Assembly (NCBI GenBank): GCA_025054955.1
Contig: JANWZE010000031.1
Span: forward strand, 38,567 to 102,566
Source of the DNA: Blastocatellia bacterium
GTDB lineage: Bacteria > Acidobacteriota > Blastocatellia > HR10 > J050
Direction: 5' to 3'
Length of the DNA stretch: 64,000 bases
A program made the translations under genes and the position numbers. The notes beneath the pieces are model-generated. The model did no database searches and was not told the origin of the DNA. It worked only from the letters and a program-made list of their open reading frames with translations. Within the stretch, counting starts at the first letter, position 1. Each line of letters begins with the position of its first letter. Positions 2,438 through 64,000 of this stretch are shown here, one piece after another.

Positions 2438-3196
2438 ATGACGGAACCGGCTGGCCCAGAATTTTATACCGGCGATTACTACCGCACGCGATGTGGCGGT
2501 CACGAGCTATTCGATTCATTCGATGGGCGTGAGCTTGAACCGATTCGCCGAAAAGCTATTGAACTAGCCCAACCGGGACCTGGGCAGCTCATCTTGGATG
2601 TCGGTTGTGGACGTGGCGAAATTGTCTTGGCCTGCGCACTACGGGGCGCGCGCGCTATCGGCATTGATTTCAGCCCGCATGCTATTGAGCTGACCCGACA
2701 TTTGCTGAACAAACTCCCGGCCGACGCCGCAGCGGCCGTTGTTCAGATGGATGCGGCTGATTTAGGATTTTGCTCCAATCAGTTCGATTCGATCCTGATG
2801 TTGGATTTCGTCGAACATGTCCCGCAAGATCGGCTGCGCCAGATCATTGCCCGTTGTCATGCCCTGTTGAAGCCGGGTGGGCGACTGATCATTCACACTG
2901 GACCGACGCAAGAATTCATTCGCTATGGACAGCACGCCAAGCGTCTGTTATACAAGCTGCTTGGGCGACCCGTTCCAGCCCTGATTACGTGGGAGGGCGA
3001 AGCGCGGCTGGCCGGTCATTGTAATTTGCATACCAAGCAGAGTCTTCGAGAAGCAATGGCAGTATTCGAGCAAAAATCGGTGCAATACCATTTTGCTATT
3101 GAGCAGGGATGGCTCAAGCGGTTGGTCCGAACAAGCGGCTTGACCCGTTATTTCGCTTTTCATTTGTGGGGCATTGGTGTTAAACGTTCATCATAA
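2438..3196 (+). CDS. class I SAM-dependent methyltransferase
   Basis: SAM-binding motif LDVGCGRGEIVLACALRGARAIGIDFS. It starts 4 nt after the upstream stop. Confidence 0.8.
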   Translation: MTEPAGPEFYTGDYYRTRCGGHELFDSFDGRELEPIRRKAIELAQPGPGQLILDVGCGRGEIVLACALRGARAIGIDFSPHAIELTRHLLNKLPADAAAAVVQMDAADLGFCSNQFDSILMLDFVEHVPQDRLRQIIARCHALLKPGGRLIIHTGPTQEFIRYGQHAKRLLYKLLGRPVPALITWEGEARLAGHCNLHTKQSLREAMAVFEQKSVQYHFAIEQGWLKRLVRTSGLTRYFAFHLWGIGVKRSS

Positions 3197-3386
3197 GTCA
3201 TCAATGGTGGTTTCATTCAGATTGTTCTGGCAGGATTAGAAAGCGCGGATTGAGAAGCAATCACACGAGACCATCAGCGGTGGTTTCATTCAGATTGTTC
3301 TGGCAGGATGAGAAAGCGCGGATTGAGAAGCAATCACACGAAACCATCAGCGGTGGTTTCATTCAAGCTGTTCTCACAGGAAGGCT
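3197..3386. repeat. tandem direct repeat, ~81-bp unit x ~2.3, beginning at the methyltransferase stop codon
   Basis: 'catca(a/g)(t/c)ggtggtttcattcagattgttctggcaggat(t/g)agaaagcgcggattgagaagcaatcacacga(g/a)ac' is repeated. The first copy includes the gene's last codons. Confidence 0.85.
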
Positions 3387-10674: not shown

Positions 10675-10935
10675 TGAACTCGCACGGGCGTGAGTGCGAG
10701 GTGGTTGAGTGCATCTTTTGGGTCGGACAGCAAGGGGACGAGGCATGAGGCCTAGACAAATCCACGAGAGGAATTGTTCATGTTGCCGGTCGCGCCGCCC
10801 AGAAACGATGAGAATGGATCACAGGCGGGACCGTCTGTGCCACATTCTCGGAGGAACGATGTGCTTGCAATGTTTTTTCCCCATAGCCTCACTGCGCGAC
10901 AGGTTTTCTTGGGCAAAAATATTCTTTCCGATGAC

Positions 10936-10995
10936 GTGGATTGCTGTGCCGGTCTGCGAGAGCGAGGATTGCTGCGTCGGTCTGCGACAGCCTGG
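10936..10995. repeat. two tandem ~27-bp direct repeats (ggattgctg(t/c)g(c/t)cggtctgcga(g/c)agc) upstream of the nuo promoter
   Basis: Seen directly. Possible operator or regulator-binding site. Confidence 0.6.
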
Positions 10996-11057
10996 ATTGC
11001 CAACCGGATCAATCATTCTCGTCCTCATCGTGAATTCCTGTGCGACATGCCCTTTTC

Positions 11058-11087
11058 TTGACAATTTCAAAACCTTGGCACTATATT
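11058..11087 (+). promoter_or_regulatory. candidate sigma-70 promoter for the nuo operon (TTGACA-18-TATATT)
   Basis: ttgaca at 11058-63 and tatatt at 11082-87, about 48 nt upstream of the nuoA ATG. Confidence 0.4.
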
Positions 11088-11135
11088 CCCGCTTCAAATA
11101 GAGACGGCGAGTCATTCAGTGTTATGTGAACGATC

Positions 11136-43102: not shown

Positions 43103-43390
43103 CGAGCAAGGCCAGCGCGTTCAGCAACGTTTCATCCGCACGCATGTTTCGACGTGTATTAGTAGAGATGAGCAGGGCTAGATTGCGTTCAGTGACGTTT
43201 CATCCGCGCGCGTATCTGGACACGAGCTAGAGCGATTTGCGAATGAGTTTATCCTGGGGCGCGCACTTCCAGCATGCATGAGCCCGCAAGATGCGGGCGC
43301 TCCCCGGGTAAAGGCAAATGAAAATCGCTTTAGTGAGAAGGATGAGCGCGGCACAGGGTCGCGTTCAGTGACGTTTCATCCGCGCGCGTA
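43103..43390. repeat. repeat cluster: three copies of a ~35-bp unit derived from the GT2 gene 3' end (gcgttcag(t/c)(g/a)acgtttcatccgc(g/a)cgc(g/a)t(a/g)t) flanking a ~100-bp family-A structured element (43231-43333)
   Basis: Unit copies at about 43126, 43185 and 43357. The 43357 copy contains the gene's stop and last codons. Confidence 0.8.
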
Positions 43391-52161: not shown

Positions 52162-52329
52162 AGCCGCCTCATATCGAGGCAGCTAGTATATCTGGCGCTC
52201 ATTAAAAAAGAAACCGCAGAGCATGCGCAGAACGCTAAGCAAACAGCGTCATTGCGCTGCGCCCGCTCTGCGGTTCGTTTCCCGACGGAGTGCATCAATC
52301 GCCCATGTTCGTATGCACGCCATGCGCGA

Positions 52330-52425
52330 TAAAAATCCGGGAGCGCACGCTTCCGGCGTGCCGAGCTGTCCGCTCCAACAAGCATGCAAGATGCATGCGC
52401 TCCCAGGGGGATGGCAGGGAAGGTT
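52330..52425. repeat. deleted or variant copy of the family-A structured repeat
   Basis: ccgggagcgcacgc...agcatgcaagatgcatgcgctcccaggggg preserves the outer stem gggagcgca/tgcgctccc. Confidence 0.45.
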
Positions 52426-53199: not shown

Positions 53200-53574
53200 A
53201 TGAGTAACGAGAAGCTCGCTCAATTCGCCGGTCAATCTTATCTCAATCTGGAGACGTATCGCAAAACGGGCGTGCCTGTGCGGACGCCGATGTGGTTTGC
53301 CGAGCAGGACGGCTTGCTGTATGTCTACACCTCATCAACAGCCGGCAAGGTGAAACGAATTCGTAACAATTCAGCCGTGCGGGTTGTGCCCTGTGATGTC
53401 CGCGGCAACCCAAAGGGAACGTGGGTCGAGGCCAAAGCCCGGCTGGTCGGCCACTCGGAGCGGCAACGCGGCTTGCAGTTGCTCAATCGCAAATACGGTT
53501 GGCAGAAAACAGTCATTGATTTCTTCTCCAGCTTGCGAGGACGCACGCCGGTCGTTATTGCGATTGAGATTTGA
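53200..53574 (+). CDS. pyridoxamine 5'-phosphate oxidase-family (PPOX class, putative F420/FMN-binding) protein
   Basis: 124 aa. ...YLNLETYRKTGVPVRTPMWFAEQDGLLYVYT... split-barrel signature. Confidence 0.6.
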   Translation: MSNEKLAQFAGQSYLNLETYRKTGVPVRTPMWFAEQDGLLYVYTSSTAGKVKRIRNNSAVRVVPCDVRGNPKGTWVEAKARLVGHSERQRGLQLLNRKYGWQKTVIDFFSSLRGRTPVVIAIEI

Positions 53575-53635
53575 CAGACAGGCGCCGGACGCGCCATCAT
53601 ACCCCGCCTGTAAATTGCTTCAAGGAGATATGGAT

Positions 53636-54028
53636 ATGAAACGAATCACCATCGTGTCAGCGTTGCTGTTAACGCTCGGTTGCTTACTGCTTACTTCGGC
53701 AGAAGCGAGCCAAAAGCCTAAAAAGGCTGTTGCCAAGCGCGCTACCCTGAAGGTTGTCAAGCCGAATTTGGTTTGCATGGTGAACAACACCGTCTTTTCC
53801 CGCGAGCAGATTCCGGTTGAAGTTGACGGCAAAACCTACTACGGATGCTGCGAGATGTGCAAAAGCCGATTGGCCAATGATGAAGCGGTGCGGTACGCCG
53901 TTGATCCTGTGACCAACAAAAAGATTGACAAAGCCACCGCCGTGATCGGCGCCAAAGCTGATGGCAGCGTGCTTTATTTTGAGAGCGAAAAAACGTTGAA
54001 GCAGTACAGTGCCGGCGGCGCTCAGTGA
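53636..54028 (+). CDS. secreted YHS/TRASH-domain (metal-binding) protein
   Basis: RBS AAGGAG 8 nt upstream of MKRITIV. Signal peptide. ...GKTYYGCCEMCKSRLANDEAVRY... is YHS-like. Confidence 0.6.
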   Translation: MKRITIVSALLLTLGCLLLTSAEASQKPKKAVAKRATLKVVKPNLVCMVNNTVFSREQIPVEVDGKTYYGCCEMCKSRLANDEAVRYAVDPVTNKKIDKATAVIGAKADGSVLYFESEKTLKQYSAGGAQ

Positions 54029-54155
54029 GCGATCTTTTGCTCGACGCGCAAGCCGTGCATAGTGCAGACCAAGTAACGCCGGGTCACCACTGATCCATTG
54101 CTTGCAGCCAAGGGAATCGCTCCTATGCAATAGCACGCCACGAAGAAAAGGGGAG

Positions 54156-54190
54156 CGCAGGCGGAAACGCCTGTGCCACATACTCAAGAG
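54156..54190 (+). repeat. family-C motif copy (gcgcaggcggaaacgcctgtgccacatactcaagag)
   Basis: Shares the 'cacaggc-N6-gcctgtgccacat(t/a)ctcaa' core with three other intergenic sites. Confidence 0.6.
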
Positions 54191-54290: not shown

Positions 54291-54410
54291 TTTGGCTTAC
54301 TCATTCGTATCGAACATGCCCACTGAGCGGCTTGGCTTGCTCGTTCGTATCAAACATGCCCACTGAGCGGCTTGGCTTGCTCATTCGTATCGAACATGCC
54401 TACTGAGCGG
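54291..54410. repeat. three tandem 40-bp repeats containing the aguB 5' end (…cttggcttgctc(a/g)ttcgtatc(g/a)aacatgcc(c/t)actgagcgg)
   Basis: Period exactly 40 bp, three copies. The third copy carries the presumed ATG at 54396. Confidence 0.85.
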
Positions 54411-58548: not shown

Positions 58549-59859
58549 ATCAACAAGCAAGCGCAAGAACGATGAAACGCGTAGCAGTAGCACGAAGCCG
58601 CTCGCCGATTCGGTTTGCGCAGGTGATGTCGCAGCCTCGGTAGACGAAGAGATTGGGCGATTGAAGGTAAGGGATTGAGGCGGACTCGGATTGAGTGTGG
58701 AACGACGACCTTGCAGGTACTCCGGGATGGTGGTGGCGTAGATCATGATGTAGCGGCCATCGGGCAGGCGAGCCACAGCGGGGTCCTTAACGCCCAAGGC
58801 TTCGAGGCTGGAGGAGGGGTCAGGCAATAATCTCGCTCCGGCGTCCACCCTCCATGTCACACCGTCAGTGGTAAAGATTGAGTAGATGGCCATGGGCGGG
58901 ATAGCAGGCGGTGGAGGCGGTTGGGCAGCTACGCGAAAACCGTAGAAGCGGTAGCCACCATCTACAGCTAGGCCGTTGGCCATGATCATGTTGCCGGTGG
59001 AGAAGTCGGCTTGGCGAGTGAAGTTCAGGCCGTCGGTGGAGGTAGCATACCAGTTGGCGCCGGGTGTACTGACCTGCCCACCGGCAAACAGGTGCCAGGA
59101 GTTACCAATCAGTATCACAGACGGGTCTAAGACGGCCCTCCCTTGCACGGTCAGGCGGAAGCCGGGTTCCAGTTGAAAGGTGAACCCGTCATCGGAGATG
59201 GCGGAAAAGGTGCGAGGACTGTTGCCGGGGCCGGCCGGCGCGGTCGTGAAGTAAAGTCTCCACTTTCCATCGGGTGTCCGGATGATGTCTGGGTCTACTG
59301 GGTCGGGCTGGCCTGGTGTCAAACCGGCGATGGTCACCCGACGGTAGTTCCACGTCTGGCCGCCGTCCGGTGAGAGCGCGACGACGACCTTGTTGCGGAC
59401 GGCCTGAGGACACCAGGTCACGTAGTAGAGGCGCAACACGCCATCATCGTCCACGATGGCGTCGGGAACGTCAGCCTGATCACTCACAATGCGATTGGCG
59501 CGGGTCCAGGTCAGGCCATCGTCAGAGTAGGCAATCATCAGCCGGTTGGCCCAAGGACCTTGTCGGCCCTCCGGGCCAGGCGGCGGGATGCCATAGCCGG
59601 TGCAGGGCGTGAAGTCGTTGGTGGCCGGCATCGCCGTTTGGAACGCTGCACGCTCCCAGTTTGCTTCAGCTCGGTTCGAGGGCGTGGCTTGAGCATAGTT
59701 GTTTGCCGAGGTAAGGGCGCGCAACTTCTCGCTGCCCAAACCTTCGTTGGGCATACGCTCATTATGGCCATTCACTTCACGCATGCTGACAATTGGAGCA
59801 CGCATTCCTAATAAGACAATCACAACAACAAGACAGCCAATTCGTGTAAGTCTGTTCAT
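58342..59859 (-). CDS. secreted BNR/Asp-box repeat protein (sialidase-like beta-propeller fold); 3' end uncertain
   Basis: RBS GGAGGAG before MNRLTRIG. Asp-boxes SDDGLTWT, SPDGGQTW, TTDGVTWR. The ORF runs 207 bp antisense into the S9 peptidase gene, so its true C-terminus is unclear. Confidence 0.55.
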   Translation of the reverse strand: MNRLTRIGCLVVVIVLLGMRAPIVSMREVNGHNERMPNEGLGSEKLRALTSANNYAQATPSNRAEANWERAAFQTAMPATNDFTPCTGYGIPPPGPEGRQGPWANRLMIAYSDDGLTWTRANRIVSDQADVPDAIVDDDGVLRLYYVTWCPQAVRNKVVVALSPDGGQTWNYRRVTIAGLTPGQPDPVDPDIIRTPDGKWRLYFTTAPAGPGNSPRTFSAISDDGFTFQLEPGFRLTVQGRAVLDPSVILIGNSWHLFAGGQVSTPGANWYATSTDGLNFTRQADFSTGNMIMANGLAVDGGYRFYGFRVAAQPPPPPAIPPMAIYSIFTTDGVTWRVDAGARLLPDPSSSLEALGVKDPAVARLPDGRYIMIYATTIPEYLQGRRSTLNPSPPQSLTFNRPISSSTEAATSPAQTESASGFVLLLRVSSFLRLLVDSLGDHHWFSAQQKFFPKQRHGVQVEIAIEFLAKSVSFIFGSQIPHLSAVLANRFDHLLRFGVRHARVI

Positions 59860-59911
59860 GATCTCCTCCGTCAAAAAAGTCACAGATTGCTCGGATTCCC
59901 ACTGATTTTTC

Positions 59912-59950
59912 TCCTTTGAGCATGTGGCACAGGCATTCGCGCCTGTGCTC
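59912..59950 (-). repeat. family-C motif copy (reverse orientation) in the BNR gene leader
   Basis: Reverse complement reads gagcacaggcgcgaatgcctgtgccacatgctcaaagg. Confidence 0.6.
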
Positions 59951-60206
59951 TATTTTCATGCTTCTTGGCGAGCCTCAGCTCATGAACGATTCCTCGGTGA
60001 AGACCAACGTTGGGCGTGTCCCTCCTTAGTGTCTTTCTCATAACTGTGTTGCCCGAAATGTTGAGACACTGGAGAGTAGGCGTGAGTTTGAAAAAATTTT
60101 CACCGTTGTGAGAATGGGGATCCCCGGACGGGAGAAGCGATGAAAATCCGGCCACGGATGAATACAGATGGACACCGTGTGATGAGACGATCCATGTTGA
60201 TGTGTA

Positions 60207-60270
60207 TCCATCCGTGGTGATTTTCCGGGGAATTGCCCATGATCGCTGAGCACGCCACGAACGATGACAA
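60207..60270 (+). repeat. family-D repeat copy (…g(a/t)ttttccg(a/g)gg(a)attgcccatga(t/g)cgctgagcacgccacgaacga…)
   Basis: Second copy at 63478-63540. Confidence 0.7.
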
Positions 60271-60424
60271 TGGAACAGATCAGTCTGATATAGTTTTACC
60301 CCATGCGCAAATCCACATGAGCCTTCTTGGCTTTTTGCATTCGCTTTGCTACACACTCCAAGAGCATTCAACCTGTTGCTCTCTGCTAGCTTGGGCATTA
60401 AACTAACAATCCGCCGATACGGTT

Positions 60425-61411
60425 ATGTACATGAGGCACACACAACAACCAGCGAGCGCAATGACGCACGATGAGCCAGCCTATCGCCGGCTTTATGAAT
60501 CGGGCGAGCTCCAAGCGCGTGTGGAACGAGCGCGGGCGTTGCTGGAGTCCTGTCGGGCCTGCCCACGCGATTGCAAGGTGAACCGCTTGGAAGACAAAAC
60601 GGCCGCTTGTCATACGGGTCGCTATGCCATCGTCAGTAGCTACTTTCCTCATTTCGGCGAAGAGGATTGCCTGCGCGGTTGGAACGGCTCAGGTACGATT
60701 TTCTTCTCGATGTGCAATCTGCGGTGCGTCTTTTGTCAAAACTACGACATCAGCCAACTCGGACAGGGGCGTGAAGCGCGGCCTCAGCAGTTGGCAGCGA
60801 TGATGCTTGAGCTGCAAGCGCGGGGCTGCCACAACATCAACTTTGTCACGCCCGAGCACGTGGTGCCGCAAATTCTGGAAGCGTTACCGCTGGCTATCGA
60901 GCGCGGCTTACGGTTGCCGCTCGTTTATAACACGAGTGCCTACGACTCACTGGAAAGCTTACAGTTGATGGATGGCGTCATAGATATCTACATGCCCGAT
61001 TTCAAGTTCTGGGACTCTGCCTTGTCGCTGCGCTACCTGAAAGCTAAAGACTACCCTGAAGTGGCCCGTCGCGCGATCAAAGAGATGCACCGTCAAGTCG
61101 GCGACCTTGTGTTGGACGAACACGGATTGGCTCGGCGTGGTCTGCTGGTGCGTCATCTGGTGATGCCTGGCGAGCTGGCCGGGACGCGCCAGATCATGCG
61201 GTTCATCGCGCAGGAGATTTCGCCTGCCACCTACGTCAATATCATGGGGCAGTACTATCCGGCAGGCAAAGTGAGCAGAGAAAAATACACTGAGATTAAT
61301 CGGCGCATCACACCGGAGGAATACGAAGCCGCCTTGCAAGCAGCGTATGAAGAGGGCATACGCCGACTTGATCAACGACCACTCAGGCAACTGTATTGGC
61401 AGTCAGTGTAA
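60425..61411 (+). CDS. radical SAM protein, PflA/PflX-like activase family
   Basis: CNLRCVFCQN (CxxxCxxC with the activase-typical Cx2RCx(Y/F)CxN spacing). Extra N-terminal Cys cluster CRACPRDCKVN. Confidence 0.7.
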   Translation: MYMRHTQQPASAMTHDEPAYRRLYESGELQARVERARALLESCRACPRDCKVNRLEDKTAACHTGRYAIVSSYFPHFGEEDCLRGWNGSGTIFFSMCNLRCVFCQNYDISQLGQGREARPQQLAAMMLELQARGCHNINFVTPEHVVPQILEALPLAIERGLRLPLVYNTSAYDSLESLQLMDGVIDIYMPDFKFWDSALSLRYLKAKDYPEVARRAIKEMHRQVGDLVLDEHGLARRGLLVRHLVMPGELAGTRQIMRFIAQEISPATYVNIMGQYYPAGKVSREKYTEINRRITPEEYEAALQAAYEEGIRRLDQRPLRQLYWQSV

Positions 61412-61418
61412 GCACACA

Positions 61419-61910
61419 ATGCTCGATTACGATCTGATTATCCCCAACCTGTTTGTCGGCGCGCACCCTAGAGGCGGCGCAGAGATTGAATATCTGCGGC
61501 GCGGCCCCCAGATTACGGCTGTGCTGAACCTACAAACTGACGACGATCTTCGCGCCTGGAAGTGCGATTGGCCGACGTTGATCGAACACTATCTGAGGTG
61601 TGGGATACAGGTTCGGCGCGTTCCGATCCGCGACTTCGATGTCGTTGACTTGGGCCGGCAACTGCCCGAAGGTGTCCATGTCTTGAGTCAACTGTTACAG
61701 GCTGGCCATACCGTCTACGTTCACTGCACCGCCGGCGTGTGGCGCGCGCCGACGCTCGTCATTGCATACCTGCACTGGTGTCAAGGGTGGCCTCTGGACG
61801 AGGCGTTTGCCCATGTCAAGCGACAACGTCCCTGCTCACCCAGCCTGGAGGCGCTGCGCACCGCAACGCGTGAGTTTCTGGCCGATCGTCAGGTTCAACG
61901 ACGAGTCTAA
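61419..61910 (+). CDS. dual-specificity / tyrosine protein phosphatase-like protein
   Basis: CX5R P-loop VHCTAGVWRAPT. Start set at MLDYDLIIPNLFVGAHP. Confidence 0.7.
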   Translation: MLDYDLIIPNLFVGAHPRGGAEIEYLRRGPQITAVLNLQTDDDLRAWKCDWPTLIEHYLRCGIQVRRVPIRDFDVVDLGRQLPEGVHVLSQLLQAGHTVYVHCTAGVWRAPTLVIAYLHWCQGWPLDEAFAHVKRQRPCSPSLEALRTATREFLADRQVQRRV

Positions 61911-61923
61911 GGTGAGCCGCAGG

Positions 61924-63153
61924 ATGCTACCGGGCGAAGAGATTCTTCATGAAGTGAACTACCGATCGCTGATCGAGCAACTGCGCCGATTTTCCACGCT
62001 CAAACAACTCTACCGATCCGATGCCTACCGCGCTCACCAACAGGCGCTCTTTTGGGTGCTCAGCGTGCCTCAGCCCTATTTGCTGCAGACGGCGCGGCCA
62101 CGCCTGCATGATTTTGTGCGTGTCGTCCAGTGGAATATCGAAAAAGGCAAAAACTTTGAAGGATTGGTCGAGACGTTTTCGGCTCACCCGATACTGCGCT
62201 ACGCCGATCTGATCCTGTTGAACGAGGTTGATTATGGCATGGCCCGCTCCGGACAGCGGCACGTCGCGCGCGAGCTGGGCCAATGGCTCGGCATGCACGT
62301 CGCCTTTGCGCCGGCCCATCTGGAATTAACCAAAGGCGTCGGCGATGACCGGAGCGCCGAGGGCGATAATCAAACGGCCTTACAGGGTAACGCAATTTTG
62401 TCCCGCTATCCGATGGATCAACTTCGCATCATTGACCTGCCCACGCAATTTGAGCCGTTTGAGTTTGAAGAGAAGCGATTCGGACGACGGATTGCATTGG
62501 TCGCTGAAGTGTTCATCAACCGAGAGAAACTCACCGTCGTCAGCACGCACTTAGAAGTTCGCGCCACACCGCGCGGGCGCGCCAAGCAAATGGCCGCATT
62601 GCTTGCCAGACTCGATCACGTCGAAGGACCGGTGTTGATCGGCGGCGATTTCAACACGGCGATATTTTCCCGTGGAAATCGGTGGCGCACGTTTCAGAGC
62701 ATCGCTCGATTGCTCTGGGCTGAGCCGGCGCAGCTCAAAGACGATTTGTTACACCCTGACAAGGATCACCGAGAACCTTTGTTTGATTTGCTACGACGAC
62801 ACGGATTTTCGTTTGAAGCGTTCAATACGCGCGAGGCAACGCACCGTGCCTCGTTGAGCGAGTTGGAAGAAAATGATCATCTGCCCGCGCTGCTGAGAAA
62901 CTGGGTGATACGTAAACTGCGTCAGTACGATTTCCGGCTCGACTTCAAGCTCGATTGGATCGCTGGGCGTCAGATCAGTCCGTTGACCGCCGATCAACTG
63001 ACCGATTCGCATTCTGGCATTGCCAGCATCAGCCCGCAAACCATTAAACATTTGACCTACCAAGGCCGGAAGATCGCCGATCACGACCCGATTGTAGTGG
63101 ACATCCGGCTGACCGAAGTCCAACGCCATGCACAGGAATCGCTCATGAGCTGA
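61924..63153 (+). CDS. endonuclease/exonuclease/phosphatase (EEP) family protein
   Basis: ...DLILLNEVD... and C-terminal ...DHDPIVVDI... are EEP catalytic motifs. Confidence 0.7.
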   Translation: MLPGEEILHEVNYRSLIEQLRRFSTLKQLYRSDAYRAHQQALFWVLSVPQPYLLQTARPRLHDFVRVVQWNIEKGKNFEGLVETFSAHPILRYADLILLNEVDYGMARSGQRHVARELGQWLGMHVAFAPAHLELTKGVGDDRSAEGDNQTALQGNAILSRYPMDQLRIIDLPTQFEPFEFEEKRFGRRIALVAEVFINREKLTVVSTHLEVRATPRGRAKQMAALLARLDHVEGPVLIGGDFNTAIFSRGNRWRTFQSIARLLWAEPAQLKDDLLHPDKDHREPLFDLLRRHGFSFEAFNTREATHRASLSELEENDHLPALLRNWVIRKLRQYDFRLDFKLDWIAGRQISPLTADQLTDSHSGIASISPQTIKHLTYQGRKIADHDPIVVDIRLTEVQRHAQESLMS

Positions 63154-63177
63154 CGCGCGCCACGAAGGATAAAAATG

Positions 63178-63217
63178 GAGCACACAGGCAGGAATGCCTG
63201 TGCCACATTCTCAAAGG
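63178..63217 (+). repeat. family-C motif copy immediately after the EEP gene stop
   Basis: gagcacacaggcaggaatgcctgtgccacattctcaaagg. Confidence 0.6.
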
Positions 63218-63477
63218 GGCGATCTCAGGAAGCGGCGTCGTTAGACGCCGCAAGCGGGTAGCCAGACGTGAAACGTCTGGCTGGGCGCCATACCCAATCC
63301 CTCACGCCCTGAAGGGGCGCTAGCAGTTCCCCCATTGGGTCGTTCATGCAGTTGAACCGCTCGCCGTGGGCACGCACGTCTTGGCGCGTCTCCAACGCGC
63401 CACGATTGTTCGGCCTGCTGTTCCAGACGTTGCACGTCTGGCTACCTGCTGTTTGTGCCTCCAGCGCAAGCCGCCCT

Positions 63478-63540
63478 CGGACGTTTTCCGAGGAATTGCC
63501 CATGAGCGCTGAGCACGCCACGAACGAGGAAAATACAATT
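63478..63540 (+). repeat. family-D repeat copy
   Basis: gacgttttccgaggaattgcccatgagcgctgagcacgccacgaacgaggaaaat. Confidence 0.7.
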
Positions 63541-63599
63541 CTTTCGTGAAGTTGGTGTGTTTCGTGGGCTATCTTCAAGGGAATCGTCCCCATGCGATT

Positions 63600-63690
63600 G
63601 CACACCGCGAAGAACCTGGGAGCGCCCGCAGCTTGCGGGCTCAACAGGCACGCCCGGAGGCATGCGCTCCCAGCGATTTCACTGGAGGAT
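63600..63690. repeat. variant copy of the structured family-A repeat (outer stem ctgggagcgc...gcgctcccag; inner hairpin cccgcagcttgcggg)
   Basis: Seen directly. Internal order differs from the other copies. Confidence 0.5.
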
Positions 63691-63774
63691 TGAGGCGGCT
63701 GTGGCGACGTACTGGGATATACCTGGTTTGTTGGCTTGTCCTCTTTTTGTACGGGTGGGTATACTTGCCAACCG

Positions 63775-64000
63775 CATGGCTGAGCGAGGGTCGAAGGTTA
63801 CGAACGGAGATCGAGTTTGGCGAGCAAGTATTTTCGTCGTCGGACTGATCTGGTTCAACAGTGGGCTATCGGTTGGCGGAGCATGGCTACAAGACTGCTC
63901 ATCTGAGGCTGTGGCGACGGGTAGGTGTTTTATGGTGCGTGCAGAAGATTGTATTGAACGAGCGGTGAAGCCGTTCGATGAGGTTTGCTCGGAAATCGGC
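63775..64000 (+). CDS. possible 5' part of a gene running off the window edge (MAERGSKVTNGDRVWRASIFVVGLIWF...)
   Basis: Frame open from ATG 63775 to the end of the window. It sits in a repeat-dense region and no homology is recognised. Confidence 0.15.

Follow-up and report, generated by a model that had tools for sequence, protein, structure and literature searches.

The closest described counterparts of the repeat analyzed here are the REP/RAYT systems, in which repetitive extragenic palindromes (REPs) go together with REP-associated tyrosine transposases (RAYTs, which are HUH/Y1 enzymes). They reportedly include the REPs of E. coli with TnpA-REP and the REPIN-RAYT systems of Pseudomonas. 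To our knowledge, a REP family is, in most described cases, restricted to one species or one genus. The REPs of E. coli are also found in BIMEs, i.e., mosaics in which REPs alternate in inverted orientation and are combined with conserved extra-palindromic motifs. Two other modular repeats are of relevance, namely the mycobacterial MIRU, with start- and Shine-Dalgarno-like signals beside the following gene, and the pneumococcal BOX, with a variable middle module.

The repeat resembles each of these systems in part. As in the REP/RAYT systems, it contains a short hairpin that is rich in GC and that has, on one strand, a GTRG foot immediately 5′ of its stem, and it occurs in many, mainly extragenic copies; in other genomes, inverted doublets of the hairpin bracket a RAYT gene. 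In contrast to those systems, the window, i.e., the whole 64,000-nucleotide stretch of Blastocatellia DNA that was analyzed, contains neither a RAYT gene nor inverted doublets, the copies lie inside a larger conserved unit, and a nearly identical hairpin sequence is found in several phyla. The likeness to BIMEs lies in the mosaic of REPs and conserved linker motifs, and in the clustering of several hairpins between genes; region 63180-63640 is such a BIME-like cluster, with 7 of the 34 perfect hairpins (at least 7 bp) of the window. However, the window unit has its two hairpins in head-to-tail arrangement, each of them with CCAC as a 3′ foot, and it adds a pseudo-RBS/ATG and a Shine-Dalgarno-like tail. 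With MIRU and BOX it shares the modular build of 40-100 nt and the tandem arrays between co-directional genes, but there is no sequence similarity, and the mini-ORF is not conserved in the window unit. Lastly, IS200/IS605-derived PATEs, for which IS608 is the model, likewise have no terminal inverted repeats and two subterminal hairpins on the same strand, and the unit has similar motifs ahead of its left end and at its right end (nnAG), which is what one would expect of target and right-end cleavage sites. The unit differs from PATEs in that no transposase is linked to it and in that its two hairpins are different in sequence. The geometry in the unit-bearing loci is compatible with the IS200/IS605 type, and these loci contain no empty/filled site with exact borders and no linked transposase.

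We conclude, with a probability of roughly 0.7, that the motif is a REP of the GTAG/GTGG-tagged, RAYT-linked superfamily, and that it fills a slot in a lineage-specific modular unit. The kind of hairpin is already known; the unit that provides its context is lineage-specific and undescribed.

Four hairpin copies in the window

The pattern CACAGGC-N6-GCCTGTG, with at most one mismatch, has four matches in the window (55% GC), at 10820-10839 (+), 54156-54175 (+), 59928-59947 (element on the - strand) and 63183-63202 (+). Shuffled sequences give an expectation of 0.02 matches, and none of 100 shuffles reaches four. The tail GCCTGTGCCACATNCTCAAAGG, with up to three mismatches, marks the same four sites (expected, 0). 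As single-stranded DNA, all four copies fold into a stem of 8-9 bp with a tetraloop, with DNA dG values between -5.7 and -10.7 kcal/mol. These results bear out the original prediction that four copies exist at these coordinates, that they are too conserved for chance and that they form hairpins. The stem had also been described as constant, which it is not, as it reads GTCTGTG in copy 10820 (at 10833) and CGCAGGC in copy 54156; and the supposed 6-nt loop is really a closing pair plus the tetraloop, which extends the stem to 8-9 bp.

Both of these stem changes result in a G-T/G-U pair on the CCAC-3′ strand. In three of the four copies, substitutions preserve pairing (as G-T/G-U) only on that strand, which is the gene-sense strand and differs from the canonical, GTGG-5′ strand of REPs; the complementary strand of the three imperfect copies folds more weakly. 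This restriction of wobble pairing to the sense strand hints at selection on the transcript.

All four copies are intergenic, and the gene contexts initially assigned to them were roughly right. Copy 63183 begins 30 nt past the stop codon of the EEP gene, copy 54156 is 128 nt past ORF 53384-54028, and copy 10820 is 146 nt past the GT4 gene and ~295 nt ahead of nuoA; copy 59928 (-) is ~70 nt ahead of the ATG of the BNR-like gene. Three copies are downstream of a co-oriented gene.

According to a working definition, a REP consists of GTAG or GTGG, 0-2 nt 5′ of a hairpin of 7-20 bp, whose stem is fully paired basally over at least 7 bp and whose loop has 2-5 nt (PMC6006769). The first ~28 nt of the motif read (G)CACAGGC-loop-GCCTGTG+CCAC, that is, GTGG + CACAGGC...GCCTGTG on the other strand, with a GTGG foot. 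CCAC follows immediately 3′ of the stem in all four window copies, and the 8-9 bp stem and the tetraloop are likewise found in all four, two of them with one G-T pair (CCAC strand). In copy 4 (63181..63206, +; dG -9.4 kcal/mol, z -3.2), the CCAC foot (GTGG on the - strand) comes after CACACAGGCA-GGAA-TGCCTGTG; copy 3 with its CCAC foot spans 59924..59949 (-; dG -10.0 kcal/mol). Copy 2 (54156-54179, +; dG -10.7 kcal/mol) and copy 1 (10820-10843, +) each include a G-U pair, the latter within an outer stem GAGAATG/CATTCTC. The repeat is multi-copy and mainly extragenic, in the window (4/4) and elsewhere (see below). A RAYT gene flanked by the same REPs is seen in four other genomes, and there is none in the window.

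Other classes of repeats fit less well. None of the four window copies has an inverted second copy within ~200 nt with which it would form the long hairpin of a REPIN; all are singlets. The unit alignments contain no TIR of the kind found in MITEs; the ends of the unit are direct repeats, TTTTCnnAG...ATTYTCnnAG. Rfam searches gave no match over the window at gathering thresholds, and nothing relevant at E<=1 in 59700-64000 and eight related loci. There are no tRNA or tmRNA genes. Literature searches for these sequences returned nothing relevant, and Nunvar 2010 has no entry for the taxa concerned.

GTGG-tagged REPs are described for Opitutus terrae by Di Nocera et al. 2013 (PMC3733652). There, the GTAG-19 and GTAG-20 families have a GTGG tag like the window REP, and the intragenic GTAG-19 peptides GTGVPPV and HGRHARAT would back-translate to CAC(A/G)GGCG...CGCC(T/C)GTG(CCAC), i.e., the window stem. 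The loop of these families differs from that of the window REP, and their identity with it would follow from the back-translated peptides.

The same hairpin in other phyla

One genome per prokaryotic species (596 Gb in total) was scanned with the pattern RCAGGC-N6-GYCTGTGCCACAT. The scan returned more than 120 loci, a lower bound, versus ~17 chance matches expected from an arithmetic estimate. The first 80 of the loci listed include 44 from Acidobacteriota, 10 from Planctomycetota, 7 from Verrucomicrobiota and 3 from Calothrix; some of the remaining, scattered loci of the 80 are probably chance matches. Several MAGs contribute at least seven loci each among the matches listed, and Opitutaceae loci are among the direct matches. 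The REP core has an unusually wide taxonomic spread.

Among the matches listed, the information content is zero outside positions -2..+24, and the flanks are therefore unrelated. Position -1, which is free in the pattern, is C in 115 of the 124 copies listed. The loop-closing pair, also free, is A-T in 77 of these 124 copies, G-C in 17, T-A in 15 and C-G in 2, with only 8 non-pairs; that is, it covaries and behaves as part of the stem. The CCAC/GTGG foot is fixed by the search pattern, and this set provides no independent test of it. Because the pattern also biases other positions, the strand test for wobbles across phyla is restricted to the unconstrained closing pair, where five wobbles fit the top strand versus one, too few to conclude.

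In terms of gene context, 72 of the 124 copies listed (58%) are outside greedy ORFs, even though ORFs cover 87% of the sequence and non-coding DNA only 13%. Convergent gene ends are preferred over divergent ones among the matches listed (20 vs 8), which also have no orientation bias relative to genes (16 vs 14). Neither T nor A tracts flank these matches. Some copies elsewhere are in-frame inside ORFs, and 14 of the 124 copies listed, in other genomes, form inverted doublets.

Linkage to RAYT genes

Four loci of other genomes (L011, L077, L078 and L089) have ORFs in which both motifs of Y1 transposases, HUH and Y, are present. These ORFs score above the Pfam cut-off for Y1_Tnp; in NCBIfam, they match best to 'REP-associated tyrosine transposase', at 58-80 bits versus a cut-off of 80, and their homologues are named RayT by public sources. 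In L078, inverted doublets of exactly the CACAGGC hairpin stand on either side of the RAYT ORF, and in the other three loci hairpin copies are found beside or within the RAYT ORF. A search by regex and tblastn found no RAYT gene in the 64-kb window, and there is none in ~87 kb of unit-bearing relatives. A near-identical REP hairpin and one RAYT clade are common to Acidobacteriota, PVC phyla and some Cyanobacteria, a spread that bears on the question of whether REP-RAYT pairs are old inhabitants of their genomes or are transferred horizontally.

The suggestion that the motif may be a protein-binding site or a structural module points in the right direction, because a REP hairpin is the substrate of the RAYT nuclease, but it missed the REP family that extends over several phyla. 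A motif of this sort can resemble a regulator site; because we read it as a REP, we recommend masking it, or annotating it as a repeat, over using it to look for a regulon.

A separate observation concerns L011 (672-4856), which is from a Verrucomicrobia MAG. There, the RAYT domain is in-frame in an ORF of 1395 aa, whose product resembles a restriction-modification/methyltransferase protein and which contains REP-encoded peptides, GMPVP and GTGIPAC, at several points. In this locus REPs and RAYT appear to be carried within coding sequence.

A modular unit around the hairpin

The extent of ~38 nt originally given for the motif proved too short. Alignments with flanks indicate that the sequence is conserved also over 55-60 nt upstream of each hairpin, so that the complete unit has ~95-100 nt, with a 5′ module of 58 nt. 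The unit consists of TTTTCnnAG, GGAATCGCYCATG, a small covarying hairpin (hairpin 1) with CCACGAA, an A-rich arm GATGAAAAT, a slot, a U-rich arm ATTYTC, and nnAGGAG. The last ~10 nt of the motif (ATTCTCAAAGG) are the 3′ edge of this unit. Accordingly, the tail, first written as 'CCACATTCTCAAAGG' or 'CCACAT(t/a/g)CTCAAAGG', comprises the REP foot, the U-rich arm and the junction motif, and its end was wrongly assigned to the palindromic element, being instead the Shine-Dalgarno-like junction of the unit. In relatives, a junction motif of the type aTTTTCnnAGGAG is found both at the end of the units and ahead of each of them.

A covariance model built from the 5′ module, referred to as R1, finds exactly eight module copies in the window, four of which have the REP in the slot. 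Unit 4 begins with a 5′ module at 63121..63178 (+; R1 59.6 bits, E 1e-13) made of the junction, GGAATCGCTCATG, a degenerate hairpin 1, CCACGAA and GATAAAAAT; the EEP stop codon (63151-63153, +) is within this module. Its tail (63207..63217, +) is ATTCTCAAAGG, a U-rich arm plus a purine, Shine-Dalgarno-like junction motif. Unit 3 (59913..60007, -; 57.6 bits), with its 5′ module at 59950-60007 followed by the REP and the tail, is located ~55 nt upstream of the Shine-Dalgarno sequence and ATG (59859) of the BNR-like gene. Unit 2 spans 54099..54190 (+; 47.8 bits; 5′ module 54099-54156, tail ATACTCAAGAG) and unit 1 spans 10756..10854 (+; 33.5 bits; type-II 5′ module 10756-10817, tail CGGAGG).

The other four modules, at 52297, 60215, 63478 and 63566, have no CACAGGC hairpin. 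One (60215..60273, +; 56.4 bits) is upstream of a radical-SAM gene, and another (63478..63536, +; 57.0 bits) is in tandem with a unit at 63566..63690 (+; 45.6 bits) that has a long hairpin, GGGAGCGC...GCGCTCCC, in the slot and the tail GATTTCACTGGAGGA. The last is part of a degenerate unit with a GGGAGCGC...GCGCTCCC hairpin (52297..52405, +; 20.4 bits), which is antisense to both neighboring genes. Seven of the eight modules are co-oriented with the adjacent gene, and one window unit overlaps the 3′ end of a gene.

The modules at 60215-60273 and 63478-63536, ~300 bp from two of the hairpin copies, are near-identical copies of the same 58-nt module, and they are probably what the original prediction called family D, a repeat combined with the hairpins (family C) in a composite element. 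Each family C copy is directly preceded by its own diverged, D-like 58-nt module, and therefore C and D are not neighbors in a larger element. A larger element does exist, but in it the module adjoins each hairpin, and the 300-bp arrangement falls away. It had also been considered that the motif might simply belong to a longer repeat already classed as an IS or a MITE and be free of positional bias. Of this, the longer unit is real; it is not a catalogued IS or MITE, and a positional bias is present.

Hairpin 1 occurs with the pairs GTGC/GCAC, GAGC/GCTC, GGGC/GCCC, GAAC/GTTC and GGCACC/GGTGCC. In the alignment, 93% of the cells are paired and there are seven double changes, which none of 500 shuffles equals. 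In the minimum-energy folds of ~18 of 22 relatives, the A-rich and U-rich arms are paired with one another, and the arms show compensatory changes, with GAGAAT/ATTCTC (in window copy 10756 and in L143) versus GAAAAT/ATTTTC. No copy of the module is present in 0.71 Mb of REP-bearing loci from other taxa, and thus the REP and the unit are independent entities that meet in this lineage. The module was also considered as a small protein (ATG...; MCxxTPRRMKM in relatives). This reading was rejected, given indels of 1-2 nt and substitutions that are not synonymous; as a mini-ORF, three of the four window copies stop after three codons.

Relatives of the unit and their turnover

In a metagenome scan, the hairpin plus tail (CAGGCN6GYCTGTGCCACATNCTCRRRRG) had no matches. 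The scan with the 5′ module gave 116 loci, ~25 of which are true relatives; the rest are chance matches, mostly coding. The intact order in the relatives is aTTTTCnnAG, GGAATCGCCCATG, hairpin 1 (4-6 bp, 4-nt loop), CCACGAA and gGATGAAAAT, followed by a variable GC-rich hairpin and by (c)tATTTTCnnAGGAGG, 5-9 nt before an ATG. Among the relatives, the tail ATTTTCnnAGGAG is found at this distance from the ATG of real genes, namely those for Cas_NE0113, CHAT-TPR and a Cys/Met PLP enzyme. Units are in tandem in L186, L188, L208 and L229, as they are in the window (63478 + 63566).

The content of the slot varies. It is a CACAGGC-type REP in L143 and a CACAGAC variant in L171; many loci have a double-footed type, GTAG-CGCAAGCTGGCAGCTTGCG-CCAC, and others have longer hairpins such as GGGAGCGC...GCGCTCCC. 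The family GGGAGCGC...(inner hairpins)...GCGCTCCC is also seen in the window at 52341-52405, at 63618-63672 and near 43282, as well as in L166 and L242. In L242, a 90% relative, this hairpin is in the slot at the orthologous site where the window has the REP.

The EEP protein is 100% identical to an NCBI entry from a Blastocatellia (Acidobacteriota) MAG, which speaks against a planctomycete such as Rhodopirellula, an origin that the GC content and the style of the repeats might have suggested. The last part of the EEP gene (ORF 61762-63153), namely a C-terminal extension of 14 codons and the stop codon (63110-63153), is encoded by the repeat unit. In relatives at 67-70% identity, the protein stops at ...DIQL(V/A), and the module is lacking. 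The module is common to the window and L238 (83% aa identity), and adds 14-20 codons and the stop codon; L238 has another hairpin in the slot and a repeat-encoded EEP extension that differs from that of the window. On the 3′ side of the GT4 gene, the 90% relatives L242 and L243 have two units. The first is absent from the window, and the second is a type-II module common to the window and L242/L243, in which a GGGAGCG-type hairpin replaces the REP. Units are thus gained, lost and tandem-duplicated as blocks, and the content of the slot is exchanged, between genomes that are 83-90% related, i.e., on a short time scale. In these orthologous comparisons the flanks align poorly and the unit borders are not exact. 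RAYT action, recombination between units, or both, may be the cause of this turnover.

We also observed that gene order breaks after GT4 between window 10675-11135 and L242 5135-5545, with nuoA following in the window versus the Cys/Met PLP enzyme in L242. The breakpoint is within repeat units, which suggests that the units mediate rearrangements. More generally, several REP families of Blastocatellia-like genomes are found within a modular unit that ends in the Shine-Dalgarno region of diverse genes and rewrites the 3′ ends of genes.

Alternative explanations

To consider the hairpin and the unit as parts of a transcript leads to a different explanation, in which the whole unit is a cis-acting RNA leader, in 5′-UTR or intercistronic position, with a pseudo-RBS + ATG mini-ORF, hairpin 1 and an A/U-closed hairpin 2. 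It would tune the translation or the stability of the next gene, and the REP-like stem would be one of several interchangeable GC-rich stems. The position of the tail just before the ATG of the three genes named above in relatives, the co-orientation of seven of the eight window modules, the covariation of hairpin 1, the maintenance of the A-arm/U-arm stem while the inner hairpin varies, and the wobble pairs that fit the sense strand only are all consistent with this explanation. Nevertheless, we regard it as quite improbable. There is no Rfam match even at E<=1, the genes behind the units are functionally unrelated, and the frame of the mini-ORF is broken by indels of 1-2 nt and by the early stops in the window copies. 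The Shine-Dalgarno sequence is not sequestered in the predicted folds, no REP-bearing unit of the window abuts a start codon, one unit overlaps a gene 3′ end, and one is antisense to both neighbors. The gain and loss of units between 83-90% related genomes is also more like that of a selfish repeat than of a fixed regulator. Another transcript-level explanation is that the A-arm, the GC hairpin and the U-arm are mainly an intrinsic, bidirectional terminator between genes. The shape, GATGAAAAT - GC-rich stem - (CCAC)tATTTTC, is typical, two of the four REP hairpins head the ranking of a terminator scan, and three copies are, as noted, downstream of a co-oriented gene. However, both of these hits belong to the antisense strand of the unit; read in the sense direction, the tail CCACATTCTCAAAGG lacks a sufficient T-run (at least 5 T in 8), and terminator-like sites in the region are not more frequent than in shuffles (16 vs 12.5 +/- 3.4). 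In relatives, moreover, the hairpin is 2-3 nt before the Shine-Dalgarno sequence and ATG of the next gene, and efficient termination would silence that gene, because there is no room for a promoter. Taken together with the REP matches listed across phyla, which are without a flanking T or A tract, these data make a terminator highly doubtful.

A third explanation assigns the function to double-stranded DNA, with CACAGGC-N6-GCCTGTG as the operator of a dimeric regulator or another protein site, e.g., a sigma-54 promoter. An inverted repeat in intergenic DNA, perfect or nearly so, is what such a site would look like, and TGGCAC on the reverse strand is a candidate for the -24/-12 elements. Yet the covariation of the closing pair (A-T, G-C, T-A) preserves pairing and not sequence, the contexts are unrelated in many phyla and include in-frame positions inside ORFs, and the element brackets RAYT genes; an operator is therefore extremely improbable. 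As for promoters specifically, a sigma-54 promoter (TGGCAC-N5-TTGC; GG-N10-GC) was rejected, as the spacing does not fit and TGGCACAGGCATTCC has CC or CG in place of GC. The reverse strand reads TGGCACAGGCATTCC/TTCGC/GGTCC, with the GC of the -12 element missing or shifted and variable loop bases in its place. An ECF promoter was ruled out on spacing by direct inspection. Lastly, the unit itself might be a small mobile or self-duplicating element that targets Shine-Dalgarno sequences, with two foot-tagged hairpin ends and captured REPs, which we consider unlikely. In this model the two head-to-tail, foot-tagged hairpins would be the left and right ends, in the single-strand manner of IS200/IS605, and REPs of different families would have been captured as an exchangeable right-end hairpin. 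Insertion would occur at the 5′ edge of Shine-Dalgarno sequences and would re-create the target, hence the tandem arrays, and it would donate to host genes a stem-loop proximal to the Shine-Dalgarno sequence and sometimes a C-terminal extension or a stop codon. If the unit were mobile, it would offer a simple case, found in nature, of a repeat that remodels operon junctions and the regions of translation initiation.

Proposed mechanism

For the reading that we prefer, a REP within a modular unit, a mechanism can be proposed from what is known of the family. The REP palindrome would extrude as a hairpin in single-stranded DNA; a RAYT would bind this hairpin and its GTGG foot, and would nick and rejoin DNA nearby, thereby spreading or maintaining the copies. 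Mobilization of the REP by a RAYT in this genome is inferred by analogy, and a simple scenario of this kind is weakened here because neither the window nor the ~87 kb of unit-bearing loci contains a RAYT, and because the wobble pairs favor the sense strand. Because the copies are singlets in slots, passive spread with the unit, or recombination, may apply instead of RAYT insertion. From the anatomy of the unit, its transcript would form a GC-rich stem-loop, closed by the A/U arms, beside the Shine-Dalgarno sequence. As a likely by-product, this stem-loop could protect mRNA 3′ ends, cause termination or attenuation, or influence translation initiation at the adjacent Shine-Dalgarno sequence.

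Neighboring features

Other elements are found near the units. A canonical, GTAG-tagged REP of another family forms an inverted pair at 63258-63282 and 63423-63445 (GTAG+CCAGACG-TGAAA-CGTCTGG and CCAGACG-TTGCA-CGTCTGG+CTAC). Towards the end of the window, the non-coding stretch 63735-63900 is conserved with L238 (~3010-3200), the 83% relative, and begins with a promoter-like sequence, TTGTCC-18-TATACT (63736-63765). This stretch has no Rfam match, and may be an unannotated RNA or leader that is cut by the end of the window. Directly 5′ of the module at 60215, a long imperfect hairpin, AAAATCCGGCCACGGATG ... CATCCGTGGTGATTTTCCGG, spans 60144-60232; it is similar to the hairpin in the slot of L229, and it looks like what is left of an upstream unit. 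Lastly, a 40-nt tandem repeat (54292-54410; 3.0 copies, 92% matches) is located just upstream of a CN_hydrolase gene, ~100 nt downstream of REP unit 2.
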